From sequence record CP025712.1: a stretch of DNA of 46,701 nt; one strand, given 5' to 3'. A program made the position numbers and the translations under genes. The notes beneath the pieces were generated by a model, which was not told the DNA's origin, did no database searches, and saw nothing but the letters and a program-made list of their open reading frames with translations. The stretch's first letter is position 1. Every line of letters starts with the position of its first letter. Positions 23,381 through 46,389 of this stretch are shown here, one piece after another. The DNA comes from Escherichia phage YDC107_1.

Positions 23381-23398
23381 TTATCCCTCCGTGACCAG

Positions 23399-23725
23399 TC
23401 ACACTTTGAGCGCAAGTTTCAGCCTCGTGGTTGTAAGGTGGCATGACCCTTCGCCATCAAAAATGCATTCTGAAACAGGCATTTTTTGACCACATCGCGG
23501 GCAAGTAGTAGATAGCTGCTTCTGCAGCTCCTTATAGTTTTTCCTGATCAGCAAACCAATGACTTCGTTCTCCGAATATGGAACTCGCCCTGGTCTACGC
23601 AATACACAAATTTCCCCCAACATACGTAACTCGTCAGGTTCTAGAATCCAGTCCCGTCTTGATGTGCCTTCCTTCTTCAACCGTTCCCTGCGTCTCCTTT
23701 GCCGTTCTGCCGGTGTCAGCGCCAT
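23399..23725 (-). CDS. Hypothetical protein with C-terminal zinc-ribbon-like cysteines
   Basis: 108 aa; basic N-terminus; CPRCG…C…C. Confidence 0.45.
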   Translation of the reverse strand: MALTPAERQRRRRERLKKEGTSRRDWILEPDELRMLGEICVLRRPGRVPYSENEVIGLLIRKNYKELQKQLSTTCPRCGQKMPVSECIFDGEGSCHLTTTRLKLALKV

Positions 23726-26233: not shown

Positions 26234-26876
26234 TTAATAATGCGGTTCGATTTAAGCTCAGACATCGCGACTTAATTAAAAGCCAGCGTTCTTTATAATC
26301 TTGTCTCCAGCTATCAATAGATATATTCAGTAGAAAACTCAGATGCCTGTCCTGTTCTCTCTCATCAACTGCCTCAGCACACGTAAGTTCTGATTTAACC
26401 TGTTGTGCCGCGTAATAAATCAATTTCCGCATGGCTTTTTTCGTGGAGGCCTTCATTTTTTTAAAGCCGCCCCCCGAATGAGCAACCAGAAAATCAAGCC
26501 ATAACCACTGACAAACAATCACATCATTGTTGTAATCAGGCTTGCATCCGTAGCAATAATAAAGCCAGGCTGATTCCTCGTTATTCAACTGACCAATAGC
26601 CCTGCGCCAGCTGGCGCTCTGAAAATCAATATCAGTGAGCAACATTGATGATTGTTTAAATGTTTTCCCCTGATGGAATCTAACCGGCTCAGCAGGAACG
26701 GACACTTCGTATGAGTTATCATCCCCCACACTGATTGACCGGACTGGTTTATTGTTAAACCGTCCTGATCTACCGAGACGCATCTGCTCAAGCTGGACCT
26801 CCAGAATGCCACGCTGGCGATAATGAACATCAGCCAATGCCGTAGAGACGCAGCTGCGTATATACTCAAGCTCCAC
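26166..26876 (-). CDS. Hypothetical early protein directly downstream of cro (regulator or Q-like candidate)
   Basis: 236 aa from a GTG start with SD AAGGAG; contains CYGC…C cysteines; family not recognised. Confidence 0.5.
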   Translation of the reverse strand: MELEYIRSCVSTALADVHYRQRGILEVQLEQMRLGRSGRFNNKPVRSISVGDDNSYEVSVPAEPVRFHQGKTFKQSSMLLTDIDFQSASWRRAIGQLNNEESAWLYYCYGCKPDYNNDVIVCQWLWLDFLVAHSGGGFKKMKASTKKAMRKLIYYAAQQVKSELTCAEAVDEREQDRHLSFLLNISIDSWRQDYKERWLLIKSRCLSLNRTALLNAAEKRSEIIKRHRAGSAILPL

Positions 26877-27087
26877 GCTTACGACTCTCCTTAATCGACT
26901 GCTTTACCCGCCGAGTTGTAAAGTCACTCTTCAGCTTATAAGCAGTACGAACTTCAATATCGCTTTGCCGCAATGAAGGAATCTCTCCAGCGGTTAACCA
27001 TTGGTAAACAGCTCCGGGTGTTACACCTACCCCTGCCGCTGCTTTTTCTACACTGCCAAAATGGCGAATAAGTTCTTCTGGTTTCAT
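26866..27087 (-). CDS. cro: Cro-like HTH repressor
   Basis: 73 aa from MKPEELIRHFGSVEKAAAGVGVTPGAVYQWL; divergent from the repressor gene. Confidence 0.7.
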   Translation of the reverse strand: MKPEELIRHFGSVEKAAAGVGVTPGAVYQWLTAGEIPSLRQSDIEVRTAYKLKSDFTTRRVKQSIKESRKRGA

Positions 27088-27118
27088 GTTGTTATTATAA
27101 ACAATAAACAACAATTAA

Positions 27119-27156
27119 AGCCAGCTATAATAAATAAATTTTATAGCCAGCTATAA
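27119..27156. promoter_or_regulatory. Operator region between cro and cB: two AGCCAGCTATAA repeats
   Basis: Repeats at 27119-27130 and 27145-27156; the second lies in the near-palindrome TTATAGCCAGCTATAA; AT-rich promoter context. Confidence 0.5.
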
Positions 27157-27178
27157 GAAGATCATTTATGATTACAGT

Positions 27179-27775
27179 ATGAAAACACGAGGCGAACGAC
27201 TGAAAGCACGCCGTTTAGAGATGAAGCTGACGTTGCGAGAAGTTGCTGAGGCTGTCGATATCTCTATAGCAGGCGTCCAAAACTTAGAACGTGGCGACGT
27301 AATGCCGTCACTGGAGATAGGTATTGCCCTGGCTAAGTGCTTACGCAAGCCAGTGCATTGGGTGCTATATGGGACAGAATATGACCCTGATCGCATTCCT
27401 GTTATTGGCACAACTGAAAGTGGGCCGGATGAAGAGTGGAAGCCGGGACAGGTTCCAAATACTGAGCGATTCCTGCCATTCATCAGCCAGCGCAATACTG
27501 TGTATGCGTTAACTATCAGCAATCTTACGCAGGGAAACTATCAGCCAGGCGATTTTCTCCTGGTCGATTCTGCGCTGGAACTGGTCCCCGGCGAGGATGT
27601 TCTGGTTCGTGATACTGCAGGAAATATCACTATCCAGCGCCTGGCCCGTTTTGATGATGAAAATTACTATCTGGATGGAACAAACTCACAACGCGCCATC
27701 TTCAGGAAAAGCGATCTTGAATTTGTTCACCAAATAGTCGGAACGATCAAATCATTCATGGTTGAGGGTAGATGA
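27179..27775 (+). CDS. cB: Prophage repressor (N15 CB / lambda CI analogue): HTH plus degenerate LexA-like C-terminal domain
   Basis: 198 aa; N-terminal HTH LTLREVAEAVDISIAGVQNLERG. Confidence 0.8.
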   Translation: MKTRGERLKARRLEMKLTLREVAEAVDISIAGVQNLERGDVMPSLEIGIALAKCLRKPVHWVLYGTEYDPDRIPVIGTTESGPDEEWKPGQVPNTERFLPFISQRNTVYALTISNLTQGNYQPGDFLLVDSALELVPGEDVLVRDTAGNITIQRLARFDDENYYLDGTNSQRAIFRKSDLEFVHQIVGTIKSFMVEGR

Positions 27776-27869
27776 CTTAATACGGGGTTTATTGTTTGCT
27801 GTAAATCTGGTTTAATGCAGGGCATATGTTCTGTGGGTTGACTCAGGTTACAGCAGCAGAAAAAAGACG

Positions 27870-27905
27870 AAAAAAAACCCGAGTCGGCAAACTCGGGTCC
27901 TTTTC
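27870..27905. terminator. Bidirectional rho-independent terminator after the repressor gene
   Basis: A-run, CCCGAGT-CGGCAAA-ACTCGGG, then T-run. Confidence 0.5.
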
Positions 27906-28020
27906 AGGAAGCAGCCACAACAACGCGACAGATTCCGTCAATTCAAGATGCGTTTATTGTGGCTGCTCCTGCGGATTTTTTCAACCCGAAAAAACATAAT
28001 TCGCATGGAATGGCTAAAAA

Positions 28021-31000
28021 ATGACATTAAACGATTTCTATGCGGATCGCTTTGGCAGCGATCCGTTCTCGCTAATTGAAGCAGCACGGGATGAACTAAC
28101 CGAGCTGGCACAGATGGCTGGTATCAACTGGCCTGCCTGTTCCGACAACATCCAACTCAACCCTCGCGGGGGGGTTGAGCGTTACTCTTCATACAATAAA
28201 ACATCTCCAGAAGCTCTCGAAAAGAGCCTGAAAGGACGCGTAGAAATTTACTCCAGGCTGGAACACAGCAAAGGGATTGATTACCCGTTCATTAACTTCG
28301 TCCATAAAGGCAGCGATGCTGGCTCATGGAGCGGTTTCTCCTTCCTGTTTTCTGAATATCGCCGTGAGCAACAACGGAATAATGCGACCGTGGTCGCACA
28401 ACCGGAAGAAGAACGGGAAAGAATAGAACGTCAGGCCGAAGCACGTCGTCGCCGTGAAGAACAAAAACGAATTAATGACCTGAAAAACAACCAAATGGAC
28501 CATGAACGTTTGCTGGGATGGCTGGCATTCCACAGCGCGTGGGAACATGCTCAGGCTGAAGACGGCTCATGGCCATATGCGATTAAAAAAGGTATTCGTG
28601 ACGTTTTTAGTTCATGTGATGTGCGTCGCGTGACCAGTCACGACAGTGCGAAATGGAGCCGGGGGCCAACCACATATATGGCTATCCCTCTGGCTCACCT
28701 GGACGGTCGTTATGATGGTCGTATTGTGGGTTGGCAGCGAATCGACAAACAAGGTGGGAAATACCAGACCAGCGCAGTAACCAGCGGCGATTTCGTCGGT
28801 GCCTGCTTTGTTATCGGTGAGCTGAAAGGGGCGCAAAACATCGCTGTTACAGAAGGTTTTGCTACTGGTGCATCCATCTGGCTTGCCACGAAAAAAGATA
28901 AACGCTTTGACGCGGTGGTTGTCGCTGTATCCGCTAACAACATGGTTCATGTTGTGGAACAACTGGTAAACATGTACCCGGCGGCAAAAATCACCTGCGC
29001 ACTGGATAATGACCGGAAATCTGCCACAGAAGGAAAAGGGAATACCGGCCTGCGGACTGGCTATGAAATCTTATCGAAATTCAACGATGTCCGCTGCGTC
29101 TACCCAACTTTTGAAGACGATCCGCAAATGGAGTGCAGTGACTTCAACGACCTGCACAAACTACGTGGACTTCGTGAAACAGCACGTCAACTATTTGCAA
29201 CAGCAAACCGCCTGAAAACCGGCACTGATTTGCTATCTCTGACGCTCAACCGCCTGAAGACAATTAAGCGGGATAACCGTCGTACTTTTGCCAAAGAGCT
29301 GCTGAGAGCGGTGGATATTGGCATGCTAACCTGTCCGGTTCCTAACAGTCCGTCAGATTTGTTTAACATGTTCTGTATCGTTCTGCGTGAAATGGGGCTG
29401 GAAAATATCTATCGCGCTACGGTAAAAGACCACATTGCCCGTCGCCTGAATAAAAAATGCCGTATTGCCCAGGCTCCGCGCTCTTTCAGCGAACGCATAA
29501 CTGATCCCAATAAACGCCCTCAACATATCACCTATAAGCGTTTTGAAACTTCGGTAATGACCTATGACGTCCTGAAGTACGTGCAATCACTACAGGGGAT
29601 CGTCATCGTTCGTGCTGGTATGGGTTCCGGCAAATCTACTGGATTGTTACGACCGTTAATGCATAGCTCAGAACGCGGTATCTCTGTAGCTCACCGTGTT
29701 TCCCTTATTGGTGGCCTGTGGGAAATGATGACTGAAGGAAAAGGTGTAAAAGCCGATATCCTGCACTATCAGGACCCTGGCTATCAGGAAATGGCTCCAT
29801 ACGCCAGTAAACTGACCATCTGCATAAACTCGATTGTTAAAAACTGCTGGCAACCGTTGATGCGCCAGCACGACTATTTTGGCTTTGACGAGGCCACACA
29901 AGGGCTACGTGCCGTTCTTTCCGGTCGGGCTATGGAAAACCCAGTGGCTGTATTCAATACGCTAATTGACGCGCTGGCCAGAACGGAACAACACCCAATA
30001 ATGGTGGATGCTGATGCGAACGATCTGCTGGTTGACCTGGCTGAACTGGCTATGAAACGCCGTGAAGAACTAGGTTTACCGGCATGGCTGCAGATCCACG
30101 TAATTGAATTACCTGTTGATGTTCGCAACCGCGAAACAGGTGAGCCAATCCGGGTTTTTTATACAGAAAAAGATCGCATCATGACCGAGGTGGTGAAAGC
30201 TGTATCGGATGGCGAAAAAATCATGTTGGCCACCGACAGCTCCACCTTTGCAGAAGATGTGACCGCCACCCTGAGAATGCATTTTCCTGGTAAGAAATTT
30301 CTGTGCGTAAACCAGAAAAGCAAACAGGATGAAGAAGTCGATGCTTTTACCAACCAGCCAAAAGTAATGGTGATGAAATACGATGGACTGATCTACAGCC
30401 CGTCGATTTCCTCCGGGGTGTCATTTGAGAAAAAACATTTTGACCGTCATTTCGGCATGTTCTGCGGTGAAGTTGTGCCCAGCGACGCAGTGCAAATGCT
30501 ACGCCGCGACCGTACAGCAAAAGAATTTATTATCGGCTTTGATAAAGCTCGTGCAAAACGCGAGACTGATCCGCAAAAAATAGAACGTGCATTCGCCCAG
30601 GCATTACTTGCTACCGCAGGCATGAACGGTGAACTGACGGATGTCGTTTTCGATGGCGACCGTATATCAATGGGGGTGGCCAATACCGACTTTACCAGGA
30701 TGAAAATTAAAGCTGCCGCTATTGAAGCGTCTGCGCGTAACGACTACGCCAGCAACATGATCTGCATCATGCACAGCGACGGTTATAAGGTATCGCCATT
30801 AGCTACTGATTATGCCGCAAATGATTTTGGTAAAGAGCTGCGCAAAGAAGCGCGGGATATTGTGTGGGAACAGACGCTGGATCTGCACCTCAATACAGAG
30901 ACACCAGAAGAATCAGAGCGTGAAGAACTACTAAAAAAACGTGCGCTAACGCTTGAAGAACAGGCAAAACTTGTCCGCTGGGATATTGAGAACGAACTGA

Positions 31001-32004
31001 AACTACCGGTTGAAGAAGGCACGCTGAAATTCTATTTCGATGGTGCTCGAGACAAAATTCGCCGTTATGAAACGATGCTGCTTGATGAAGTCACAGCCCG
31101 TCGTTATGACCGTGAAGAAGCGGCTATCAATTTTACATACGCATACCGCCAGACCGGACAGTGGCAATATTTTGTGGTGACCGCGATGACACGCGAGCAG
31201 GCTGATGATGTATTCAAAGCGAAATTTCCGGGAATAATCGACTACAAGGTAAAAGCCACCCCAGCTGTTGAGGTCGGCATGCGCGGATTCTATGCGCTTA
31301 AATCAGCAACTCTCCGGCAGTATTTTATCGACTGCGGTATCGACCCTGAAACTATGACTGGCGAAGCGACGCAGGAACGCCTTAAGTTCGCTCGAGATAA
31401 TCTCATGACAGCAGAACGCCGTGACCTGTTGAATAACGTTCTGCGCATTGGTGGTTTTATGACACCAAAAGGGAAGCCTAAAGTGCCGGAAGCACTGTTT
31501 AAAAACATCTGCGACTCTCTCGGCCTAAAAACAGGAAAACGTCGCGGCAGAGATGGCGATAAGCGCCCGACATTGCGTTTTGTTGAGCCTGAGTCTGTAG
31601 CATTTATGCTTGATATTCTTACGCAACGTCAGGAGGACGGTATGACGTTGAAAGCTCGCAAGGCAGAAAAATCAACGACCGAAGTGGATCGCGATTTGTC
31701 ATTAAATATATATATGAATGGTGAAACGCGATCCACAAACACGGAGGAACAGGATCCCCCTCGTTCAGCTATATCACAGGCTTTGGCTGTATTGCCGGTG
31801 GCTGTTCCTGAGTCCTGGGCGATGAGTGCTCTGCCATCAGCCGAACTGGAATCTATCAGGGGGTGGTCAGTTGACAGCATCGCATACACGTTTGCAGCCC
31901 TTTATATGACTGAGTTTATGGATTTGCTGTCCGGTCATGAGATTAAGTTGCTGAAGGCTTTTATAGGCCCACGACATGCCAGCGATGAGTTTTGTGTAGT
32001 TTAG
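28021..32004 (+). CDS. repA: Replication protein: Toprim primase fused to a helicase/NTPase (N15 RepA / P4 alpha-like)
   Basis: 1327 aa; Toprim motifs (VTEGFATGASIW, ALDNDRKSATEGKG); Walker A GMGSGKST; Walker B-like FDEATQ. Confidence 0.9.
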   Translation: MTLNDFYADRFGSDPFSLIEAARDELTELAQMAGINWPACSDNIQLNPRGGVERYSSYNKTSPEALEKSLKGRVEIYSRLEHSKGIDYPFINFVHKGSDAGSWSGFSFLFSEYRREQQRNNATVVAQPEEERERIERQAEARRRREEQKRINDLKNNQMDHERLLGWLAFHSAWEHAQAEDGSWPYAIKKGIRDVFSSCDVRRVTSHDSAKWSRGPTTYMAIPLAHLDGRYDGRIVGWQRIDKQGGKYQTSAVTSGDFVGACFVIGELKGAQNIAVTEGFATGASIWLATKKDKRFDAVVVAVSANNMVHVVEQLVNMYPAAKITCALDNDRKSATEGKGNTGLRTGYEILSKFNDVRCVYPTFEDDPQMECSDFNDLHKLRGLRETARQLFATANRLKTGTDLLSLTLNRLKTIKRDNRRTFAKELLRAVDIGMLTCPVPNSPSDLFNMFCIVLREMGLENIYRATVKDHIARRLNKKCRIAQAPRSFSERITDPNKRPQHITYKRFETSVMTYDVLKYVQSLQGIVIVRAGMGSGKSTGLLRPLMHSSERGISVAHRVSLIGGLWEMMTEGKGVKADILHYQDPGYQEMAPYASKLTICINSIVKNCWQPLMRQHDYFGFDEATQGLRAVLSGRAMENPVAVFNTLIDALARTEQHPIMVDADANDLLVDLAELAMKRREELGLPAWLQIHVIELPVDVRNRETGEPIRVFYTEKDRIMTEVVKAVSDGEKIMLATDSSTFAEDVTATLRMHFPGKKFLCVNQKSKQDEEVDAFTNQPKVMVMKYDGLIYSPSISSGVSFEKKHFDRHFGMFCGEVVPSDAVQMLRRDRTAKEFIIGFDKARAKRETDPQKIERAFAQALLATAGMNGELTDVVFDGDRISMGVANTDFTRMKIKAAAIEASARNDYASNMICIMHSDGYKVSPLATDYAANDFGKELRKEARDIVWEQTLDLHLNTETPEESEREELLKKRALTLEEQAKLVRWDIENELKLPVEEGTLKFYFDGARDKIRRYETMLLDEVTARRYDREEAAINFTYAYRQTGQWQYFVVTAMTREQADDVFKAKFPGIIDYKVKATPAVEVGMRGFYALKSATLRQYFIDCGIDPETMTGEATQERLKFARDNLMTAERRDLLNNVLRIGGFMTPKGKPKVPEALFKNICDSLGLKTGKRRGRDGDKRPTLRFVEPESVAFMLDILTQRQEDGMTLKARKAEKSTTEVDRDLSLNIYMNGETRSTNTEEQDPPRSAISQALAVLPVAVPESWAMSALPSAELESIRGWSVDSIAYTFAALYMTEFMDLLSGHEIKLLKAFIGPRHASDEFCVV
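28383..28398. repeat. 16-bp core TGCGACCGTGGTCGCA, copy 5, inside repA
   Basis: Outer bases not complementary (16 of 18); mirrored copy at 45080-45097. Confidence 0.5.
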
Positions 32005-32021
32005 AGGGTAGAAGCGTGGGA

Positions 32022-32288
32022 ATGATGCAAGAGTGCCTCGTTTTGATTGAAGGGTATGATCCGTATGTTGTTAACGTCAGCAGAATGGATACTGGCTATA
32101 GCGACTACAAAACTGGTCGTGAACTGCCGTTCACCATCATCAGGATGAATAGCTTTGGCGATGATGATGCTGTTTATTGCTGTATAGCCAGCGATAAAAA
32201 CATGGAAGACCGGACAGATGAAGCCCGTATGCTATTGAGGAAATATAAGGTAAAGCCGTTATCAGAGAATAACGCTGAGAGGGGTTAA
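32022..32288 (+). CDS. Hypothetical protein
   Basis: From ATG MMQECLVLIEGYDP (ORF-track start 31992 is TTG). Confidence 0.45.
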   Translation: MMQECLVLIEGYDPYVVNVSRMDTGYSDYKTGRELPFTIIRMNSFGDDDAVYCCIASDKNMEDRTDEARMLLRKYKVKPLSENNAERG

Positions 32289-32290
32289 AA

Positions 32291-32686
32291 ATGGCAGTTC
32301 AATCATACAAATACGAATCCCCTTTGGATAAGGGATACATTCGTATCAAGTTAAGTCGTTCTCAGCATAAGGCTATTTTTAAGGTAAGGAAAATTCGCAT
32401 ATTGGATGCGTATGCGTATTACTACAACGGTGAAAATGTTGTTGTTGAACACTTTCTTGCACGATGGTTTGTAGCTCTGATTTTTGTCCCTCTCCTGTTA
32501 ATTGGTACTTTTGTGGATGGTTTTCCTAGTACATGGCGGGAGATAAAGAAAGGCCTATTCCCGCGTAAGTACGGCAGATTTTCGCAAGATAGCTGGCGAG
32601 TTATACCTGGTAAACATTCTGTGGATGAGCAGCCGATTGTTGATTACTGGTTGAAGCATATGGCTGATGCTAAAAAAGTTGATTGA
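32291..32686 (+). CDS. Hypothetical membrane protein
   Basis: 131 aa with SD GAGAGGGG; TM segment WFVALIFVPLLLIGTFV. Confidence 0.5.
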   Translation: MAVQSYKYESPLDKGYIRIKLSRSQHKAIFKVRKIRILDAYAYYYNGENVVVEHFLARWFVALIFVPLLLIGTFVDGFPSTWREIKKGLFPRKYGRFSQDSWRVIPGKHSVDEQPIVDYWLKHMADAKKVD

Positions 32687-32704
32687 GTTGTGGAAGGAGT
32701 ATTT

Positions 32705-32929
32705 ATGAACTGTAACAAAAATGAAGAAACTCGCCTGGTTTGGACGGTAGTAATCGGAGATAAAGAGGGCGGTGAAGAGCCTCATTTTGATTATTCTGTG
32801 GCTTTGCAGGCTCTCATCCTTGAAGCGCAGAGATACCAACAAGAGATGCAGAAGAACCCTCAACTGGAACCTCGACCAATTGGCCTATTCTGCGAGCGAG
32901 TATCAGCGGCGGAACTCCCTGATATCTGA
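32705..32929 (+). CDS. Hypothetical small acidic protein
   Basis: MNCNKNEETRLVWTVVIG…; SD GGAAGGA. Confidence 0.45.
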   Translation: MNCNKNEETRLVWTVVIGDKEGGEEPHFDYSVALQALILEAQRYQQEMQKNPQLEPRPIGLFCERVSAAELPDI

Positions 32930-33120
32930 TGCCCTCCAACAGCTGATCAGGTTCTGATCAGTTAGTAAAGCAAACTATAAAAACACCTGTCCCCGTGACT
33001 GGTCACGGGGTAAAATGTCTTTGCAAATTATTGACGTGTGCGTCGTTTTGACGGTAAAGTTACTTCGCTGCGGTAAATCCCGTAGCCGGGACTCTCAACC
33101 CCGAAATCCGAACGACGCAC

Positions 33121-33143
33121 AACACGCGCCAGCGTGTTTTTTT
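33121..33143 (+). terminator. Rho-independent terminator ending a short untranslated transcript upstream of the anti-repressor operon
   Basis: AACACGC-GCCA-GCGTGTT followed by a T-run. Confidence 0.45.
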
Positions 33144-33309
33144 GTGTGTATGAGCCTGCGCATATCCGAATTATGGTGGCTCAGGTGGGGCAGCCGAAAG
33201 GCTGGCCGGTGTCGTTTGGGCCGGTGTTGAGAACCCCGCTTGGGCTACCACCCCATAGAGATTCTCAACTCTGGTGGTAGCACTGTTTTACCAAACAAGA
33301 GTGCATACC

Positions 33310-33474
33310 ATGTTCAAATTCAAATTTGCGGCAGTCGTTCGCACAGACAAAAAGTCACACATCCATCATCTTTCCACCATCGCGTCATCTGAACGGGAAG
33401 CTCGTCGCCAGTTCGCCAGCCGGTTTGTCCTGGTATTGTCTGCCCGTATTCCGGTGCGCGAGGTGGCTGCATGA
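33310..33474 (+). CDS. Small protein, first gene of the anti-repressor operon (Icd-like position)
   Basis: 54 aa from MFKFKFAAVVRTDKK. Confidence 0.35.
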   Translation: MFKFKFAAVVRTDKKSHIHHLSTIASSEREARRQFASRFVLVLSARIPVREVAA

Positions 33475-33704
33475 ATCAGGTAAAAATGAACACTGTTGGC
33501 CTGCTGGAATCGTTGGATGAACGTCTGGCTCAGGTCTATGCGCTTGTGTCATCAGCCCATCGTACAGTCTCCAGTTGTGAGGCGTCGATTTATCTCTCAG
33601 AAGCCGGGAAGCTCCTTCAAATCGCGTGTGAGTTGACACACAAAGCACAGGGGTATTCAGCATCTCTCTCGTCGCAATTGCAGCACAATAAGGAGGCCAA
33701 ATGA
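33471..33704 (+). CDS. Hypothetical protein (anti-repressor operon)
   Basis: 77 aa, SD GAGGTGG, ATGA-coupled to neighbours. Confidence 0.45.
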   Translation: MNQVKMNTVGLLESLDERLAQVYALVSSAHRTVSSCEASIYLSEAGKLLQIACELTHKAQGYSASLSSQLQHNKEAK

Positions 33705-34477
33705 GCGCGTTAGCTGTATTTTCGTTTCAGGAAGAGCATCAGGTTCGTGTAGTGATGATTGATAGCGATCCGTGGTTTGTTGCATCTGATGTGTGTATGG
33801 CGGCGGGTATTGATTCTACGGCCATTAGAAAGTTGGATGAGGACGAAAAGGGTCTGCATTTAATGCAGACCCCTGGCGGATACCAGAATGTTTCAATCAT
33901 CAAGGAGTCAGGTCTATACACCCTAATCCTCCGCTGCCGTGACGCGGTGAAGCAAGGCACAACAGCTTGGCGGTTTCGCAAATGGGTAACGAACGAAGTC
34001 TTGCCCTCTATTCGCAAAAATGGAGAGTACGTTTACGTTGAGCCAGAGCCAATGCGAGCAGCAGAGCCGTTGAACTGGAGGCAGAAAGAGTATCTGCGAG
34101 GGCTGATTAACGATATTGCACAAAGTTTTCAATACCGAAATGCCTGGATTAGCGGTGTATGGTTGGCTTTGCGTCGGGCGTGTCGTAATCCATCCCCGAA
34201 CCCCATAACTGTTGATGATTTGCCAGCAATAACGGCAGAACTGCGACGGATTTTGACGGCTGCTGAGTCGGCATTGGGGAACATGCGCACGTATGAACGA
34301 GAGTTGTTGCGTGATGTTGTTCGTGGTGGTAGGCGGAGTATGTCGTGTGGTGATTTGCCCATCACCGATATCAACTCTGATCTGGAAAAGGCGTTACCCG
34401 CGCATTTTGAACTGGCAGTTCAAAAACTTGAGCAGTTGTCCGCGCAGCTAAAGCCAGCAGAAATCACCAATAAATAG
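33701..34477 (+). CDS. ant: Anti-repressor with Bro-N domain
   Basis: 258 aa; N-terminus FSFQEEHQVRVVMIDSDPWFVASDVCMAAGI… typical of Bro-N/Ant; SD AGGAGG. Confidence 0.75.
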   Translation: MSALAVFSFQEEHQVRVVMIDSDPWFVASDVCMAAGIDSTAIRKLDEDEKGLHLMQTPGGYQNVSIIKESGLYTLILRCRDAVKQGTTAWRFRKWVTNEVLPSIRKNGEYVYVEPEPMRAAEPLNWRQKEYLRGLINDIAQSFQYRNAWISGVWLALRRACRNPSPNPITVDDLPAITAELRRILTAAESALGNMRTYERELLRDVVRGGRRSMSCGDLPITDINSDLEKALPAHFELAVQKLEQLSAQLKPAEITNK

Positions 34478-34649
34478 GGTTGGCCAGCCCGAATTGATGC
34501 CCTTCTTAGTGAGGGGAAGCCTCGCAGTCTGGGCGGTGATGTCTGTGGTTGCAGCCGCGTTTCCTCCGTTACTTCTGCCCTTTGCAGGGGGCAGGCGAGG
34601 CAGGCCACATAACAAGGCACCGATTAATTCGGTGCCTTTAACGTATGCT

Positions 34650-36551
34650 TTAGCCGAAATATGTCAGCCATGCTAACTGCATTGCTGACATGGGGCTGTT
34701 TGCACTGCCTGACCACGCATAATTCTGGCCATTATAATGAAACTCAACAACGTATGAGCCATCACCAATATTTCTCACAGGCTTAAATACCGGCTTAGAT
34801 ACAGGTGAAGAAGGCGCGGGCGGTTGCTGTTCTTCTACGCTCTCTTCCTCTTCCTCTTCCTCTTCCTCTATCTCAATTTCGTCGTCATCCAGATCGTCAT
34901 CCTCTGATAATTCATCCGTCTGTTCAGGTATTGCTTCCAGCTCTTCTTCGTCAGGCATAACGATTTCTGGAGAATCTATTTTCAGCTGCCATTGTCCATT
35001 TTCGCCAACAAATTGCCCCAGAGCATCAGCAGCAAATTCCAGGTATCGACTAATCATTGTAGGGCTAAATTTGAATGCTCTTAGAGTGCTGTTCGTGATT
35101 TTTATAGAGGGGTCATGCTCTACCAGCTGCTTAACTGTGTTATGCAGACGAACCCCGGCATCTCCTCTGGCGAATCCTGGCATTTCGTCATCAAGCTGCT
35201 GCAATGCTTCCAGCCTGGTATTTTCGTTTCCAGTATTTGGCCTCCATGTCTTTGAGAAGTTGGCCAGCTTGAATTGCTTATAGTGTAATTGAGTGTTTTC
35301 ATCGTCATGGCCTAAAATTTCCATAAAGAAAACATCCTCATCTACGTTTTTCCAACGAGGATCTACGCGGAAAAACATTTCATACGCAATACGGGCATAA
35401 ATAGCACGACTATCTTTATAAACACGGCGGTCATCTTTGAAAAATGATTTAACCCACGGGTTAAAAGCCTTTGCTAATATGGCATTAATCCGTCCGTTTT
35501 CAGAGCGTGTGTCGTTATCTCCATAACCTTTAACGACATCATCAAAATCAGATGCTGCCGGGCATGAGCGAAGTACATTTATTAAATAAACAAATGTTTT
35601 TGCTTCGCATAATGTATATATTTTTCTGGTTATATCATCAGAAGTTCTTTTTTTTGCTTGGCCTAAAAAATCAACGGTATACTTACCAGAAACAGTAAAT
35701 GTACCTTGATACATAATCTCAATCATTCGTCTTCCTGACAATGCAGCAAGTGCAAATGCCAAAGGAGCCATACCTGAACGAGTGTTTAGATTATTTAATG
35801 TAGCAGGGCTATTTATAATATCGTAAATAGCTTGCATATATTTAGGGTAATCAATGACCACCACGTTACGTTTCTTATTGTGCAGAACGTCTGCCCATCG
35901 TTGCTGGATAGATGCGCGTTCGGCAGGGCTTAGTTGAAGATGATAGAGAATCTCATGGTTAACTTTTAGCTGATTCAACTCCTCAAGCAAGGCAGATCCT
36001 TGCTGTAGTAATTTATATAAATAATCGCGCTTATCTTTCCAGTTATCGCTAGTTAAATCAGAAATGGCGAATTGCCACTCTTTATATTTATTTGATAATT
36101 TTAATAACTTATTATGACTTTTGTTATCACCAATTCTGATATTAGATAAATCTTCTGATAAAGGGAGAATTAATTTTAATTTTGCCTGTAAAGCTGACAT
36201 TCTCTGGCGAATATCGGCAGCAGGTAGAGAAAGCCATGACAATAGCTCCTCATTATATAAAGGATACTTTTCAGATAGGCGATGTATATTTTTTTCAAAG
36301 CTATGATGAAGTTTATCATCAAACCGTTTTCTGGCCCTGCTCATATAGGTATTGAATGTGTTGGCTGTAATTCTTTTTTCTAATCCTTTCCCCCTAAACT
36401 TTCGCTTGTCATTAAATAATGCATTTTTAAACTTTAATGCAACAGCCTTTATTTTTTTTGTTTTCTCCCCTTGAGGACGGTCAGAGTTATCTATTGACTC
36501 AACATCGCTAACAAGTGAGTTTATTAATTCACCGATTTTTACTTTGCTCAT
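34650..36551 (-). CDS. telN: Protelomerase (TelN-like telomere resolvase)
   Basis: 633 aa; N-terminus MSKVKIGELINSLVSDVESIDNSDRPQGEKTKKIK… and length resemble N15 TelN as I recall; acidic C-terminal stretch; start 190 bp from the telRL-like palindrome. Confidence 0.88.
   Translation of the reverse strand: MSKVKIGELINSLVSDVESIDNSDRPQGEKTKKIKAVALKFKNALFNDKRKFRGKGLEKRITANTFNTYMSRARKRFDDKLHHSFEKNIHRLSEKYPLYNEELLSWLSLPAADIRQRMSALQAKLKLILPLSEDLSNIRIGDNKSHNKLLKLSNKYKEWQFAISDLTSDNWKDKRDYLYKLLQQGSALLEELNQLKVNHEILYHLQLSPAERASIQQRWADVLHNKKRNVVVIDYPKYMQAIYDIINSPATLNNLNTRSGMAPLAFALAALSGRRMIEIMYQGTFTVSGKYTVDFLGQAKKRTSDDITRKIYTLCEAKTFVYLINVLRSCPAASDFDDVVKGYGDNDTRSENGRINAILAKAFNPWVKSFFKDDRRVYKDSRAIYARIAYEMFFRVDPRWKNVDEDVFFMEILGHDDENTQLHYKQFKLANFSKTWRPNTGNENTRLEALQQLDDEMPGFARGDAGVRLHNTVKQLVEHDPSIKITNSTLRAFKFSPTMISRYLEFAADALGQFVGENGQWQLKIDSPEIVMPDEEELEAIPEQTDELSEDDDLDDDEIEIEEEEEEEEESVEEQQPPAPSSPVSKPVFKPVRNIGDGSYVVEFHYNGQNYAWSGSANSPMSAMQLAWLTYFG
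34842..34868. repeat. (CTCTTC)n hexanucleotide repeat inside telN, encoding a poly-Glu tract
   Basis: Four and a half tandem CTCTTC units; mirrored at about 38616-38642. Confidence 0.6.
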
Positions 36552-36714
36552 CTTTCCTCTCCTGATTATCCGCTCGGATTATCGTAACACAATTTGAGAA
36601 TAAGATAACTAATAACGCGTTAACTTAGGCACAAACTAACAGAACACAATAACGGATAATAAATAAAAACACAATATCGGAACGTTAAAATTTGTTCCTT
36701 GACTTTGTTCTGAA

Positions 36715-36770
36715 AATCAGCACATAATTTCCCATTATACGCGCGTATAATGGGAAATTATGTGCTGATT
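36715..36770. other. telRL-like telomere resolution site; centre of dyad symmetry between 36742 and 36743
   Basis: AATCAGCACATAATTT-CCCATTATACGCGCGTATAATGGG-AAATTATGTGCTGATT, same architecture as N15 telRL as I recall. Confidence 0.8.
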
Positions 36771-36933
36771 TTCAGAACAAAGTCAAGGAACAAATTTTAA
36801 CGTTCCGATATTGTGTTTTTATTTATTATCCGTTATTGTGTTCTGTTAGTTTGTGCCTAAGTTAACGCGTTATTAGTTATCTTATTCTCAAATTGTGTTA
36901 CGATAATCCGAGCGGATAATCAGGAGAGGAAAG

Positions 36934-38833
36934 ATGAGCAAAGTAAAAATCGGTGAATTAATAAACTCACTTGTTAGCGATGTTGAGTCAATAGATAACT
37001 CTGACCGTCCTCAAGGGGAGAAAACAAAAAAAATAAAGGCTGTTGCATTAAAGTTTAAAAATGCATTATTTAATGACAAGCGAAAGTTTAGGGGGAAAGG
37101 ATTAGAAAAAGAATTACAGCCAACACATTCAATACCTATATGAGCAGGGCCAGAAAACGGTTTGATGATAAACTTCATCATAGCTTTGAAAAAAATATAC
37201 ATCGCCTATCTGAAAAGTATCCTTTATATAATGAGGAGCTATTGTCATGGCTTTCTCTACCTGCTGCCGATATTCGCCAGAGAATGTCAGCTTTACAGGC
37301 AAAATTAAAATTAATTCTCCCTTTATCAGAAGATTTATCTAATATCAGAATTGGTGATAACAAAAGTCATAATAAGTTATTAAAATTATCAATAAATATA
37401 AAGAGTGGCAATTCGCCATTTCTGATTTAACTAGCGATAACTGGAAAGATAAGCGCGATTATTTATATAAATTACTACAGCAAGGATCTGCCTTGCTTGA
37501 GGAGTTGAATCAGCTAAAAGTTAACCATGAGATTCTCTATCATCTTCAACTAAGCCCTGCCGAACGCGCATCTATCCAGCAACGATGGGCAGACGTTCTG
37601 CACAATAAGAAACGTAACGTGGTGGTCATTGATTACCCTAAATATATGCAAGCTATTTACGATATTATAAATAGCCCTGCTACATTAAATAATCTAAACA
37701 CTCGTTCAGGTATGGCTCCTTTGGCATTTGCACTTGCTGCATTGTCAGGAAGACGAATGATTGAGATTATGTATCAAGGTACATTTACTGTTTCTGGTAA
37801 GTATACCGTTGATTTTTTAGGCCAAGCAAAAAAAAGAACTTCTGATGATATAACCAGAAAAATATATACATTATGCGAAGCAAAAACATTTGTTTATTTA
37901 ATAAATGTACTTCGCTCATGCCCGGCAGCATCTGATTTTGATGATGTCGTTAAAGGTTATGGAGATAACGACACACGCTCTGAAAACGGACGGATTAATG
38001 CCATATTAGCAAAGGCTTTTAACCCGTGGGTTAAATCATTTTTCAAAGATGACCGCCGTGTTTATAAAGATAGTCGTGCTATTTATGCCCGTATTGCGTA
38101 TGAAATGTTTTTCCGCGTAGATCCTCGTTGGAAAAACGTAGATGAGGATGTTTTCTTTATGGAAATTTTAGGCCATGACGATGAAAACACTCAATTACAC
38201 TATAAGCAATTCAAGCTGGCCAACTTCTCAAAGACATGGAGGCCAAATACTGGAAACGAAAATACCAGGCTGGAAGCATTGCAGCAGCTTGATGACGAAA
38301 TGCCAGGATTCGCCAGAGGAGATGCCGGGGTTCGTCTGCATAACACAGTTAAGCAGCTGGTAGAGCATGACCCCTCTATAAAAATCACGAACAGCACTCT
38401 AAGAGCATTCAAATTTAGCCCTACAATGATTAGTCGATACCTGGAATTTGCTGCTGATGCTCTGGGGCAATTTGTTGGCGAAAATGGACAATGGCAGCTG
38501 AAAATAGATTCTCCAGAAATCGTTATGCCTGACGAAGAAGAGCTGGAAGCAATACCTGAACAGACGGATGAATTATCAGAGGATGACGATCTGGATGACG
38601 ACGAAATTGAGATAGAGGAAGAGGAAGAGGAAGAGGAAGAGAGCGTAGAAGAACAGCAACCGCCCGCGCCTTCTTCACCTGTATCTAAGCCGGTATTTAA
38701 GCCTGTGAGAAATATTGGTGATGGCTCATACGTTGTTGAGTTTCATTATAATGGCCAGAATTATGCGTGGTCAGGCAGTGCAAACAGCCCCATGTCAGCA
38801 ATGCAGTTAGCATGGCTGACATATTTCGGCTAA
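36934..38833 (+). pseudogene. Mirror copy of telN, broken by two 1-bp homopolymer contractions
   Basis: ORF fragments 36934..37143, 37140..37430 and 37493..38833; first break is A6 to A5 at about 37107. Confidence 0.7.
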
Positions 38834-39005
38834 AGCATACGTTAAAGGCACCGAATTAATCGGTGCCTTGTTATGTGGCCTGCCTCGCCTGCCCCCTGCA
38901 AAGGGCAGAAGTAACGGAGGAAACGCGGCTGCAACCACAGACATCACCGCCCAGACTGCGAGGCTTCCCCTCACTAAGAAGGGCATCAATTCGGGCTGGC
39001 CAACC

Positions 39006-39782
39006 CTATTTATTGGTGATTTCTGCTGGCTTTAGCTGCGCGGACAACTGCTCAAGTTTTTGAACTGCCAGTTCAAAATGCGCGGGTAACGCCTTTTCCA
39101 GATCAGAGTTGATATCGGTGATGGGCAAATCACCACACGACATACTCCGCCTACCACCACGAACAACATCACGCAACAACTCTCGTTCATACGTGCGCAT
39201 GTTCCCCAATGCCGACTCAGCAGCCGTCAAAATCCGTCGCAGTTCTGCCGTTATTGCTGGCAAATCATCAACAGTTATGGGGTTCGGGGATGGATTACGA
39301 CACGCCCGACGCAAAGCCAACCATACACCGCTAATCCAGGCATTTCGGTATTGAAAACTTTGTGCAATATCGTTAATCAGCCCTCGCAGATACTCTTTCT
39401 GCCTCCAGTTCAACGGCTCTGCTGCTCGCATTGGCTCTGGCTCAACGTAAACGTACTCTCCATTTTTGCGAATAGAGGGCAAGACTTCGTTCGTTACCCA
39501 TTTGCGAAACCGCCAAGCTGTTGTGCCTTGCTTCACCGCGTCACGGCAGCGGAGGATTAGGGTGTATAGACCTGACTCCTTGATGATTGAAACATTCTGG
39601 TATCCGCCAGGGGTCTGCATTAAATGCAGACCCTTTTCGTCCTCATCCAACTTTCTAATGGCCGTAGAATCAATACCCGCCGCCATACACACATCAGATG
39701 CAACAAACCACGGATCGCTATCAATCATCACTACACGAACCTGATGCTCTTCCTGAAACGAAAATACAGCTAACGCGCTCAT
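39006..39782 (-). CDS. Mirror copy of the Bro-N anti-repressor gene (intact)
   Basis: Identical 258-aa translation to 33701..34477. Confidence 0.5.
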   Translation of the reverse strand: MSALAVFSFQEEHQVRVVMIDSDPWFVASDVCMAAGIDSTAIRKLDEDEKGLHLMQTPGGYQNVSIIKESGLYTLILRCRDAVKQGTTAWRFRKWVTNEVLPSIRKNGEYVYVEPEPMRAAEPLNWRQKEYLRGLINDIAQSFQYRNAWISGVWLALRRACRNPSPNPITVDDLPAITAELRRILTAAESALGNMRTYERELLRDVVRGGRRSMSCGDLPITDINSDLEKALPAHFELAVQKLEQLSAQLKPAEITNK

Positions 39783-40778: not shown

Positions 40779-40796
40779 AAATACTCCTTCCACAAC

Positions 40797-41460: not shown

Positions 41461-41477
41461 TCCCACGCTTCTACCCT

Positions 41478-44400
41478 CTAAACTACACAAAACTCATCGC
41501 TGGCATGTCGTGGGCCTATAAAAGCCTTCAGCAACTTAATCTCATGACCGGACAGCAAATCCATAAACTCAGTCATATAAAGGGCTGCAAACGTGTATGC
41601 GATGCTGTCAACTGACCACCCCCTGATAGATTCCAGTTCGGCTGATGGCAGAGCACTCATCGCCCAGGACTCAGGAACAGCCACCGGCAATACAGCCAAA
41701 GCCTGTGATATAGCTGAACGAGGGGGATCCTGTTCCTCCGTGTTTGTGGATCGCGTTTCACCATTCATATATATATTTAATGACAAATCGCGATCCACTT
41801 CGGTCGTTGATTTTTCTGCCTTGCGAGCTTTCAACGTCATACCGTCCTCCTGACGTTGCGTAAGAATATCAAGCATAATGCTACAGACTCAGGCTCAACA
41901 AAACGCAATGTCGGGCGCTTATCGCCATCTCTGCCGCGACGTTTTCCTGTTTTTAGGCCGAGAGAGTCGCAGATGTTTTTAAACAGTGCTTCCGGCACTT
42001 TAGGCTTCCCTTTTGGTGTCATAAAACCACCAATGCGCAGAACGTTATTCAACAGGTCACGGCGTTCTGCTGTCATGAGATTATCTCGAGCGAACTTAAG
42101 GCGTTCCTGCGTCGCTTCGCCAGTCATAGTTTCAGGGTCGATACCGCAGTCGATAAAATACTGCCGGAGAGTTGCTGATTTAAGCGCATAGAATCCGCGC
42201 ATGCCGACCTCAACAGCTGGGGTGGCTTTTACCTTGTAGTCGATTATTCCCGGAAATTTCGCTTTGAATACATCATCAGCCTGCTCGCGTGTCATCGCGG
42301 TCACCACAAAATATTGCCACTGTCCGGTCTGGCGGTATGCGTATGTAAAATTGATAGCCGCTTCTTCACGGTCATAACGACGGGCTGTGACTTCATCAAG
42401 CAGCATCGTTTCATAACGGCGAATTTTGTCTCGAGCACCATCGAAATAGAATTTCAGCGTGCCTTCTTCAACCGGTAGTTTCAGTTCGTTCTCAATATCC
42501 CAGCGGACAAGTTTTGCCTGTTCTTCAAGCGTTAGCGCACGTTTTTTTAGTAGTTCTTCACGCTCTGATTCTTCTGGTGTCTCTGTATTGAGGTGCAGAT
42601 CCAGCGTCTGTTCCCACACAATATCCCGCGCTTCTTTGCGCAGCTCTTTACCAAAATCATTTGCGGCATAATCAGTAGCTAATGGCGATACCTTATAACC
42701 GTCGCTGTGCATGATGCAGATCATGTTGCTGGCGTAGTCGTTACGCGCAGACGCTTCAATAGCGGCAGCTTTAATTTTCATCCTGGTAAAGTCGGTATTG
42801 GCCACCCCCATTGATATACGGTCGCCATCGAAAACGACATCCGTCAGTTCACCGTTCATGCCTGCGGTAGCAAGTAATGCCTGGGCGAATGCACGTTCTA
42901 TTTTTTGCGGATCAGTCTCGCGTTTTGCACGAGCTTTATCAAAGCCGATAATAAATTCTTTTGCTGTACGGTCGCGGCGTAGCATTTGCACTGCGTCGCT
43001 GGGCACAACTTCACCGCAGAACATGCCGAAATGACGGTCAAAATGTTTTTTCTCAAATGACACCCCGGAGGAAATCGACGGGCTGTAGATCAGTCCATCG
43101 TATTTCATCACCATTACTTTTGGCTGGTTGGTAAAAGCATCGACTTCTTCATCCTGTTTGCTTTTCTGGTTTACGCACAGAAATTTCTTACCAGGAAAAT
43201 GCATTCTCAGGGTGGCGGTCACATCTTCTGCAAAGGTGGAGCTGTCGGTGGCCAACATGATTTTTTCGCCATCCGATACAGCTTTCACCACCTCGGTCAT
43301 GATGCGATCTTTTTCTGTATAAAAAACCCGGATTGGCTCACCTGTTTCGCGGTTGCGAACATCAACAGGTAATTCAATTACGTGGATCTGCAGCCATGCC
43401 GGTAAACCTAGTTCTTCACGGCGTTTCATAGCCAGTTCAGCCAGGTCAACCAGCAGATCGTTCGCATCAGCATCCACCATTATTGGGTGTTGTTCCGTTC
43501 TGGCCAGCGCGTCAATTAGCGTATTGAATACAGCCACTGGGTTTTCCATAGCCCGACCGGAAAGAACGGCACGTAGCCCTTGTGTGGCCTCGTCAAAGCC
43601 AAAATAGTCGTGCTGGCGCATCAACGGTTGCCAGCAGTTTTTAACAATCGAGTTTATGCAGATGGTCAGTTTACTGGCGTATGGAGCCATTTCCTGATAG
43701 CCAGGGTCCTGATAGTGCAGGATATCGGCTTTTACACCTTTTCCTTCAGTCATCATTTCCCACAGGCCACCAATAAGGGAAACACGGTGAGCTACAGAGA
43801 TACCGCGTTCTGAGCTATGCATTAACGGTCGTAACAATCCAGTAGATTTGCCGGAACCCATACCAGCACGAACGATGACGATCCCCTGTAGTGATTGCAC
43901 GTACTTCAGGACGTCATAGGTCATTACCGAAGTTTCAAAACGCTTATAGGTGATATGTTGAGGGCGTTTATTGGGATCAGTTATGCGTTCGCTGAAAGAG
44001 CGCGGAGCCTGGGCAATACGGCATTTTTTATTCAGGCGACGGGCAATGTGGTCTTTTACCGTAGCGCGATAGATATTTTCCAGCCCCATTTCACGCAGAA
44101 CGATACAGAACATGTTAAACAAATCTGACGGACTGTTAGGAACCGGACAGGTTAGCATGCCAATATCCACCGCTCTCAGCAGCTCTTTGGCAAAAGTACG
44201 ACGGTTATCCCGCTTAATTGTCTTCAGGCGGTTGAGCGTCAGAGATAGCAAATCAGTGCCGGTTTTCAGGCGGTTTGCTGTTGCAAATAGTTGACGTGCT
44301 GTTTCACGAAGTCCACGTAGTTTGTGCAGGTCGTTGAAGTCACTGCACTCCATTTGCGGATCGTCTTCAAAAGTTGGGTAGACGCAGCGGACATCGTTGA

Positions 44401-45458
44401 ATTTCGATAAGATTTCATAGCCAGTCCGCAGGCCGGTATTCCCTTTTCCTTCTGTGGCAGATTTCCGGTCATTATCCAGTGCGCAGGTGATTTTTGCCGC
44501 CGGGTACATGTTTACCAGTTGTTCCACAACATGAACCATGTTGTTAGCGGATACAGCGACAACCACCGCGTCAAAGCGTTTATCTTTTTTCGTGGCAAGC
44601 CAGATGGATGCACCAGTAGCAAAACCTTCTGTAACAGCGATGTTTTGCGCCCCTTTCAGCTCACCGATAACAAAGCAGGCACCGACGAAATCGCCGCTGG
44701 TTACTGCGCTGGTCTGGTATTTCCCACCTTGTTGTCGATTCGCTGCCAACCCACAATACGACCATCATAACGACCGTCCAGGTGAGCCAGAGGATAGCCA
44801 TATATGTGGTTGGCCCCCGGCTCCATTTCGCACTGTCGTGACTGGTCACGCGACGCACATCACATGAACTAAAAACGTCACGAATACCTTTTTTAATCGC
44901 ATATGGCCATGAGCCGTCTTCAGCCTGAGCATGTTCCCACGCGCTGTGGAATGCCAGCCATCCCAGCAAACGTTCATGGTCCATTTGGTTGTTTTTCAGG
45001 TCATTAATTCGTTTTTGTTCTTCACGGCGACGACGTGCTTCGGCCTGACGTTCTATTCTTTCCCGTTCTTCTTCCGGTTGTGCGACCACGGTCGCATTAT
45101 TCCGTTGTTGCTCACGGCGATATTCAGAAAACAGGAAGGAGAAACCGCTCCATGAGCCAGCATCGCTGCCTTTATGGACGAAGTTAATGAACGGGTAATC
45201 AATCCCTTTGCTGTGTTCCAGCCTGGAGTAAATTTCTACGCGTCCTTTCAGGCTCTTTTCGAGAGCTTCTGGAGATGTTTTATTGTATGAAGAGTAACGC
45301 TCAACCCCCCCGCGAGGGTTGAGTTGGATGTTGTCGGAACAGGCAGGCCAGTTGATACCAGCCATCTGTGCCAGCTCGGTTAGTTCATCCCGTGCTGCTT
45401 CAATTAGCGAGAACGGATCGCTGCCAAAGCGATCCGCATAGAAATCGTTTAATGTCAT
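41478..45458 (-). pseudogene. Mirror copy of repA, broken by at least three 1-bp contractions
   Basis: Fragments 41478..41876, 41837..44749 and 44661..45458; contractions TTT to TT, AAA to AA and CCC to CC checked by eye. Confidence 0.7.
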
Positions 45459-45703
45459 TTTTTAGCCATTCCATGCGAATTATGTTTTTTCGGGTTGAAA
45501 AAATCCGCAGGAGCAGCCACAATAAACGCATCTTGAATTGACGGAATCTGTCGCGTTGTTGTGGCTGCTTCCTGAAAAGGACCCGAGTTTGCCGACTCGG
45601 GTTTTTTTTCGTCTTTTTTCTGCTGCTGTAACCTGAGTCAACCCACAGAACATATGCCCTGCATTAAACCAGATTTACAGCAAACAATAAACCCCGTATT
45701 AAG

Positions 45704-46299
45704 TCATCTACCCTCAACCATGAATGATTTGATCGTTCCGACTATTTGGTGAACAAATTCAAGATCGCTTTTCCTGAAGATGGCGCGTTGTGAGTTTGTT
45801 CCATCCAGATAGTAATTTTCATCATCAAAACGGGCCAGGCGCTGGATAGTGATATTTCCTGCAGTATCACGAACCAGAACATCCTCGCCGGGGACCAGTT
45901 CCAGCGCAGAATCGACCAGGAGAAAATCGCCTGGCTGATAGTTTCCCTGCGTAAGATTGCTGATAGTTAACGCATACACAGTATTGCGCTGGCTGATGAA
46001 TGGCAGGAATCGCTCAGTATTTGGAACCTGTCCCGGCTTCCACTCTTCATCCGGCCCACTTTCAGTTGTGCCAATAACAGGAATGCGATCAGGGTCATAT
46101 TCTGTCCATATAGCACCCAATGCACTGGCTTGCGTAAGCACTTAGCCAGGGCAATACCTATCTCCAGTGACGGCATTACGTCGCCACGTTCTAAGTTTTG
46201 GACGCCTGCTATAGAGATATCGACAGCCTCAGCAACTTCTCGCAACGTCAGCTTCATCTCTAAACGGCGTGCTTTCAGTCGTTCGCCTCGTGTTTTCAT
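45704..46299 (-). pseudogene. Mirror copy of the cB repressor gene, frameshifted
   Basis: GGG to GG contraction; fragments 45704..46141 and 45967..46299. Confidence 0.65.
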
Positions 46300-46389
46300 A
46301 CTGTAATCATAAATGATCTTCTTATAGCTGGCTATAAAATTTATTTATTATAGCTGGCTTTAATTGTTGTTTATTGTTTATAATAACAA

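Follow-up and report, generated by a model that had tools for sequence, protein, structure and literature searches.

Replication of the telomere phage N15 initiates within its repA gene (PMC2847241), and repA alone, with its internal origin, is cited in PMC10612081 and PMC2847241 as driving replication in both N15 and PY54. In N15 and phiKO2 binding of the prophage repressor CB to the operators OL has been shown (PMC4997575), and with CB at OL repA is transcribed less and copy number falls (PMC4997575, PMC4488713), while the RepA proteins of N15 and PY54 are classed as fusions of a superfamily 2 (SF2) helicase to a DnaG-type primase, the helicase function being confirmed experimentally (Kazlauskas et al., PMC4889955). 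Between cB and repA the record of the N15 immB region (GenBank U45242) annotates OL2 and OL1 overlapping a promoter PL, terminators of the repA leader and of an RNA antisense to repA, the promoter, Pinc, from which this putative RNA would be read, and a ribosome-binding site for repA. Here, we analysed a stretch of 46,701 nucleotides (nt) from Escherichia phage YDC107_1 (CP025712.1), hereafter the window, in which positions 27906-32004 hold a repA gene and part of the leader that precedes it. This region is very probably the replication module of an N15-family telomere phage, a linear plasmid-prophage, comprising repA, leader control and an internal origin. Modules of this type are already known and well studied and nothing in this one is new in kind; what is added here is an origin core placed by conservation, the block structure of the leader, and a caveat about a fold-back in the assembly. 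The value is mainly one of annotation, in that base-level coordinates are given for the repA control elements, the partition site and the origin core of an Escherichia coli N15-like phage-plasmid. Such phage-plasmids are common in clinical Klebsiella and Escherichia, and N15 replicons are the basis of linear cloning vectors (pJAZZ).

The window is assigned to the N15-like linear plasmid-prophages because of its nucleotide and RepA identities to phages of this family. Escherichia phage PhiR46_1 (PV340565) is 94.7% identical in nucleotides over 27700-31832 and 94.8% in RepA amino acids (aa), and the Klebsiella telomere phages, phiKO2 and N15 share 74-79% nucleotide identity with the region; the helicase and C-terminal DNA of N15 has diverged too far for megablast. 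A tblastn search of RepA against 50,697 phage records (E<=1e-5) gave 29 matches, among them N15 gp37 (76% identity, residues 1-1320), PY54 RepA (49%, residues 1-1312) and the RepA proteins of VP882 and phiHAP-1 (about 30%). Among plasmids, a 721-nt leader query matched 214 entries of PLSDB, the sole 100% identical match there being E. coli pS142-3 (OY754439). The gene order Q, cro, cB, repA is that of N15 (compared through GenBank U45242, U63085 and AF064539): domain searches place a Q antiterminator gene and a P22-Cro-like gene upstream, on the strand opposite to cB, and cB itself (27179..27775, plus strand) encodes a 198-aa protein that is 78% identical to N15 CB, with an HTH_3 domain and a weak Peptidase_S24 match. 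The telomere-phage context is completed by a 633-aa open reading frame (ORF) and a tel-like palindrome nearby.

All leader elements annotated in U45242 align in the window with order and spacing unchanged, from OL2/OL1 and PL through a bidirectional terminator and Pinc to the ribosome-binding site, and positions 27948-28023 are almost base-for-base identical to N15. The putative repA promoter PL (-35 TTTATT, 27788-27793; -10 TTTAAT, 27811-27816; plus strand) is placed by homology to N15 PL, and the operators OL2 (TTATTGTTTGCTGTAA, 27789-27804) and OL1 (TTAATGCAGGGCATAT, 27812-27827), both given on the plus strand, by positional homology to N15 OL. The inner operator sequences differ from those of N15 and the motif T-A-N10-T-A is retained; in addition, 12 of the 16 positions of OL2 agree with the reverse complement of an OR-region site from the window's own cB-cro region. 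By analogy with N15 and phiKO2, CB would be expected to control repA transcription. Downstream of the operators lies a bidirectional intrinsic terminator, T1 (27860..27905, both strands), with the stem CCCGAGT/ACTCGGG at 27878-27897. A terminator scan reports it on the minus strand (27905-27870) as a 16-pair stem followed by a U8 run, which corresponds to an A8 tract on the plus strand; the sense-strand U-tract is shorter and varies from 4 to 6 residues among relatives, whereas the A8 tract is invariant. The phiKO2 record labels the homologous terminator 'bidirectional', and the N15 record names it as terminator of both leader and antisense RNA. Within the predicted leader transcript, T1 is followed by an interrupted hairpin, H2 (27905..27971), a third predicted hairpin, H3 (~27972-28004), and the ribosome-binding region of repA (28004-28016, positioned from its annotated N15 homologue), all on the plus strand. 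A 57-aa leader-peptide ORF at 27826-27999 was considered and rejected, as indels among relatives change the leader length and its frame is not conserved.

The core of H2 is a perfect 11-bp inverted repeat, AGCAGCCACAA (27910-27920) and TTGTGGCTGCT (27957-27967), that was located exactly in the initial annotation, where it was described as lying between the repressor terminator and the repA start and as a likely regulatory or antisense-RNA site. The position holds, the repeat falling between the terminator hairpin (27870-27905) and the repA ATG, but the terminator, being part of the repA leader and downstream of the CB operators, is more than a terminator of the repressor gene. The repeat extends to 14 nt at 93% and H2 as a whole to about 23 pairs; a perfect inverted repeat of at least 11 bp (loop <=60 nt) arose in 0.3% of 2000 shuffles of the 245-nt cB-repA spacer (p ~0.003), and the fold of the leader has a z-score of -4.8. 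An antisense function is suggested by a Pinc-type promoter found on the minus strand by promoter scanning (27956..27984), which is homologous to the annotated N15 Pinc: its -35 element (TTGAAA, 27984-27979) is separated by a 17-nt spacer from the -10 element (CACAAT, 27961-27956), which lies within the 3' arm of H2, and an AT-rich tract upstream of the promoter runs to ~28003, up to the repA Shine-Dalgarno (SD) sequence. Transcription from this promoter to T1 would yield an antisense RNA of ~88 nt (27862..27949, minus strand), whose predicted fold is stable (-32.8 kcal/mol, z -4.2).

Conservation of the leader follows the layout of this predicted RNA. Among 55 loci, reduced to 32 distinct leaders, 42 of the 46 columns of T1 are invariant and 27948-28023 is almost so; diversity is 0.026 in the terminator and A-tract (27860-27905), rises to 0.315 in the 5' arm and 0.390 in the apex of H2, and falls to 0.018 in the 3' arm and 0.048 from there (H3) to the ATG. 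The only variable block of the leader is thus the 42 nt at 27906-27947, which form the 5' body of the predicted antisense RNA, and the invariant blocks are exactly those that a putative minus-strand RNA would need, its promoter and its terminator. Such a pattern is as expected for a countertranscript with a specificity-setting body, and we regard it as good, if indirect, evidence that the RNA exists. The two arms of H2 would accordingly be under different demands, the 3' arm never varying because it doubles as the Pinc -10 and start region, and the 5' arm varying because it is both target and template of the proposed RNA body. With bulges of 0-3 nt and G.U pairs the 5' arm nonetheless remains able to pair, such that H2 keeps 23-27 pairs and a minimum free energy of -27 to -40 kcal/mol in 19 of 19 sequence variants.

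The second element of the module for which conservation is informative is the origin, which the initial annotation had suspected in the 3' part of repA on the model of N15. Codon alignment of 39 distinct repA genes, scored for third-position diversity at conserved residues, gave a gene-wide mean of 0.384 (standard deviation 0.093) in 12-codon windows, with a minimum of 0.006 at 31705-31740 (z -4.1) and low values of 0.006-0.08 over 31666-31779; the 25-codon minimum was 0.038, and none of 300 permutations went below 0.165. This is the strongest constraint on synonymous sites in the gene and its unique extreme minimum. Amino-acid diversity across 31666-31779 is high, so the constraint must be on the DNA. 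The minimum coincides with a 20-nt imperfect inverted repeat, 80% complementary, formed by GTGGATCGCGATTTGTCATT (31684-31703) and AATGGTGAAACGCGATCCAC (31717-31736) around the AT-rich centre TTAAATATATATATGAAT; at 100-nt resolution there is no broad dip in GC content around it (0.42-0.46). In this palindrome the arms GTGGATCGCG...CGCGATCCAC, which contain GGATC, flank the (AT)n centre. At the homologous position the N15 record U63085 annotates three 11-bp repeats, and the 3' end of N15 repA has the same GATC/AT-rich repeat cluster as the window. The 3' end of PY54 repA likewise has, at the matching place, a GATC-rich, AT-centred cluster with four GATC sites around ATATAGATATAA. The PY54 origin reportedly spans 212 bp in the 3' part of its repA, and PY54 repA alone is said to drive a circular replicon. 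Because of the synonymous minimum, the palindrome, the N15 repeats, the PY54 cluster and the report of initiation within N15 repA (PMC2847241), we consider 31684-31736 to be the probable origin core, within a candidate origin at 31666..31779.

Taken with what is known of N15, these elements suggest a scheme with three levels of control. CB would bind OL2/OL1 over the weak PL, just downstream of cB; transcripts that escape would have to read through the leaky sense orientation of the bidirectional terminator; and a constitutive minus-strand Pinc, between the terminator and the repA ribosome-binding site, would supply an antisense RNA of ~88 nt that ends at T1 and whose sequence complements the terminator hairpin as well as the apex and 5' arm of H2. 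RepA, by analogy with N15 and PY54, would act as the single initiator on the origin in the 3' end of its own gene. The existence of the antisense RNA, its repression of repA and the exact origin core are proposed from sequence. Were the antisense RNA to act, a block of translation or triggered decay of the leader would be the most likely route, ahead of attenuation. An antisense RNA paired at the upstream terminator could do no more than prevent termination, which makes attenuation at that site unlikely.

Several observations weigh against parts of this scheme. PL falls below the threshold of a consensus promoter scan, the origin core is placed by conservation and homology and not by function, and of the four GGATC motifs that most relatives have in the core only two are left in the window variant (N15 has three by our count, its core being put at three to four when set against the two of the window). 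The antisense RNA is called putative in U45242 itself; an Rfam scan of 27000-32500 at E<=1 returned sub-threshold chance matches only (NsiR1, mir-354), and scans of the PY54 and Salmonella loci at the gathering threshold matched no family. When binding of the antisense RNA was modelled by forcing 27862-27949 to be unpaired, access to the SD/AUG was unchanged in N15-type leaders (0.54 vs 0.53), and because of this we claim no specific inhibitory step. RNAalifold, run on MAFFT alignments (which misplace the bulges) for both the sense hairpin and the 5' stem-loop of the antisense RNA, found no double-sided compensatory changes in the N15 family, the reason being that one arm never changes. Finally, in most variants the two strands give folds of about the same stability, and a strand asymmetry is clear in the N15-type variants alone, where two arm differences are G.U-compatible on the sense strand only (-31.8 vs -23.1 kcal/mol).

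The lack of compensatory changes and the similar stability on the two strands in most variants, together with the invariance of the 3' arm of H2, would fit an inverted repeat that was a site in DNA rather than an RNA element, either the operator of a dimeric protein, as in autoregulation by RepA, or a cruciform. The overlapping Pinc -10 and start region already explains why the 3' arm is invariant, however, and a symmetric operator could not tolerate bulges of 0-3 nt at differing positions of the 5' arm. The arms lie 30-36 nt apart and are moreover quite unlike in diversity (0.315 vs 0.018), and in N15-type variants both arm differences are G.U-compatible on the sense strand only; we therefore consider a DNA-level site highly unlikely and retain the leader hairpin opposed by an antisense RNA as the preferred reading.

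More distant relatives provide a further view of the leader. The cB-repA leaders of PY54, P840 and the Salmonella plasmid pAR-0403 cannot be aligned with that of the window, and yet they fold into the same series of a terminator, a long hairpin and a third hairpin. In pAR-0403 the scan finds a minus-strand promoter whose -10 falls within or at the long hairpin's 3' arm; the equivalent promoter of PY54, TGCGCA-17-TACAAT, was read by eye and is absent from the promoter-scan list. That two distant lineages hold an equivalent hairpin of different sequence is difficult to reconcile with an inverted repeat devoid of function, whose 5' arm would be a chance or drifting partial copy of Pinc, leaving control to CB and the terminator only. 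The lack of covariation and the unaffected access to the ribosome-binding site in the model would both be natural on such an account, but the pairing retained in every variant in spite of substitutions and indels in the 5' arm, and the chance probability of 0.003 for the core, are not, and we give it hardly any credence.

The same lineages bear on whether H2 could belong to an attenuator of the pT181/pIP501 type, in which binding of the antisense RNA would switch the fold of the nascent leader towards a terminator before repA. In PY54 (locus L056, 1465-1489) and pAR-0403 (L058, 4407-4438) a U-run directly follows the third hairpin, which lies just ahead of the ribosome-binding site and is scored as an intrinsic terminator, and in the window a U6 run (27976-27981) starts 4 nt past H2. 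In the N15 family, though, CGGA lies between the stem and this U-run, and no U-tail follows the third hairpin; the scan found no plus-strand terminator in 27906-28020, no alternative preemptor pairing was found, and the antisense RNA would overlap T1, where, as stated above, pairing could only prevent termination. Attenuation therefore appears improbable for the window, and translation block or leader decay remains our preferred mode of action. It may be that repA is controlled by attenuation in the PY54 and Salmonella lineages and otherwise in the N15 family.

In its general plan the leader resembles those of plasmids regulated by countertranscripts, R1 (CopA/CopT), ColE2 (RNAI) and pT181/pIP501, in which a short constitutive countertranscript, here putative, is encoded in the rep leader and a conserved promoter and terminator enclose a variable body that would set incompatibility. 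It differs from these in that there is no sequence or Rfam relationship, and in that the antisense RNA of the window would share a bidirectional terminator with the leader. Variation in the 5' arm of H2 probably sets incompatibility specificity, and invariant promoter and terminator sequences around a variable RNA body lead to a testable prediction of incompatibility among these elements.

A second source of specificity may lie at the other end of repA. The last ~125 residues of RepA are only 45-71% identical to those of the PhiR46_1 group, in contrast to 95-99% for the rest of the protein, and in PhiR46_1 and the E. coli and E. albertii phage-plasmids such as pS142-3 these codons and the origin core form a different allele. 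To N15 this mosaic C-terminal tail (aa 1201-1327) is 53-58% identical (58% in the last 57 residues), and one IMG/VR locus alone, L017, has the same allele as the window (98-99% aa identity over the tail, 99% overall). That 31603-32004 (RepA aa 1195-1327) is a separate allele suggests a recombination boundary near the embedded origin, and the distinct origin allele, with its two GGATC motifs, and the distinct RepA tail could define a new replicon-specificity group in the N15 family. We put forward tentatively, as possibilities we would not favour over their negation, that 27906-27947 is a diversifying specificity determinant of the putative antisense RNA and, separately, that the origin allele and RepA tail mark a new incompatibility group. 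If the first were true, co-resident telomere phage-plasmids would escape each other's copy-number control via the variable block.

The repA gene itself (28021..32004, plus strand; ORF call, domain searches and homology) encodes the 1327-aa protein that had been described as combining Toprim primase and Walker A/B NTPase domains, a description that stands. PHROG 4913 ('replication') spans residues 1-1315, and three primase PHROGs match the primase region at aa 106-399 (nt 28336-29217; 2e-35, 8e-22 and 1e-11), within which Pfam Toprim_3 matches aa 274-383 below its cut-off (E 1.6e-4, 22.5 bits against 27.2). The Toprim signatures are recognisable as E278 in TEGFATG and D329/D331 in LDNDR. For the helicase, NCBIfam CyRepA1 (aa 525-1034, nt 29593-31122; 255 bits, cut-off 200) and Pfam Herpes_ori_bp (aa 500-674; 28.9 bits, cut-off 20) both score above threshold, and the Walker A (GMGSGKST, 533-540) and Walker B (FDEAT, the DEAT box, 622-626) motifs and the Glu and DxD of Toprim are unchanged even in PY54 and the Salmonella plasmid. 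A PDB sequence search with RepA gave one marginal match to UL9 (E 0.07), and a profile of seven family sequences matched no PDB entry at E<=1. With UL9 and CyRepA1, RepA shares motif I (GxGKS/T), motif II (DExx), DAxAN and QxxxRxR, UL9 differing in that it has no primase domain. By homology and domain content RepA is the orthologue of N15 RepA, a predicted fusion of a Toprim/DnaG-type primase and a UL9-like SF2 helicase.

The initial annotation had likened this protein to both N15 RepA and the alpha protein of P4. The first comparison is borne out by the 76% identity to gp37; the second survives as an architectural analogy. The P4 alpha protein joins a Toprim-type primase, a helicase and origin recognition in one polypeptide, and its helicase belongs to superfamily 3. 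Homology to it was rejected, as tblastn returned no P4 record at E<=1e-5 and the RepA helicase fits SF2 models of the UL9 type.

Two palindromes are embedded in the 5' half of repA. The first, TGCGACCGTGGTCGCA (28383..28398, codons 121-126), is the fifth copy of a 16-bp palindrome (7-bp arms, 2-bp spacer) and does lie in the 5' coding region, as had been proposed; there are six matches in the window, five of them unique, where 0.17 would be expected. Of 39 unique repA genes, 38 have its core GCGACCGTGGTCGC unchanged and one has CA for GT in the spacer. N15 carries the palindrome in the same codons, the phiKO2 record annotates a 'putative plasmid partitioning site' at the homologous position, and the N15 centromere lies within repA (PMC2847241). 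PY54 and the Salmonella plasmid have the F-sopC-like TGGGACCACGGTCCCA at a similar position of repA; PY54 thus shares a sopC-like palindrome in repA and differs in its sequence (TGGGACC..GGTCCCA). On this homology 28383-28398 is the known centromere-like partition site inside repA, predicted to be of SopB type. The second palindrome, CGTGACCAGTCACG (28629..28642), does not vary among the 39 repA genes and coincides with the second-deepest dip of synonymous diversity in the gene (z -2.9). Its family has three unique copies in the window (28629-28642, 32994-33007 and 23390-23403), against 0.09 expected, with mirror copies at 44837 and 40476, and at the homologous position PY54 and the Salmonella plasmid carry TGGGACCGTGGTCACA.

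These mirror copies arise from the structure of the assembly. Megablast of the window against its own minus strand aligns 26776-46701 with 46701-26776 at 99.92% identity over 19.9 kb, with 16 gaps, about a centre at ~36738/36739 occupied by the tel-like palindrome ...CCCATTATACGCGCGTATAATGGG... / ...TTTCCCATTATACGCGCGTATAATGGGAAA.... Adjoining it is the 633-aa ORF (34650-36551, minus strand), a putative protelomerase by size and position. It is because of this fold-back through the telomere that repA appears twice in the window: a second copy of cB, leader and repA is present at 41475..46300 on the minus strand, with single-base indels and broken ORFs, and the sixth partition palindrome (45081) is the mirror image of copy 5. 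Given this near-perfect symmetry, the mirror copy is read as a fold-back and not as a second replicon, and it looks as if a long-read assembly had run through a hairpin telomere. Two repA leaders in opposite orientation also occur in the IMG/VR pairs L023/L034, L026/L037, L015/L039, L046/L049 and L038/L052, and two repA-leader copies in the PLSDB entries H20, H23, H48, H55 and H60; 75-80-kb 'plasmids' are among these public records. From these cases it would seem that databases commonly contain fold-back or dimer assemblies of phage-plasmids with hairpin ends, and the fold-back in the window is a warning against treating such assemblies as complete or circular.

Two further features were observed in the course of the comparison. 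In a contig assigned to Limoniibacter endophyticus (L010, NZ_BMZO01000013.1, ~1400-1520) the 3' part of a cB-like gene joins repA at about codon 10, without operators, terminator, hairpin or ribosome-binding site between the two genes; the host is an alphaproteobacterium, odd for an enterobacterial element, and the contig may be a deletion derivative or a contamination. In the window itself, a 172-nt direct repeat at 93% identity (17388-17559 and 18339-18509) has its second copy between the partition palindromes at 18301 and 18521.

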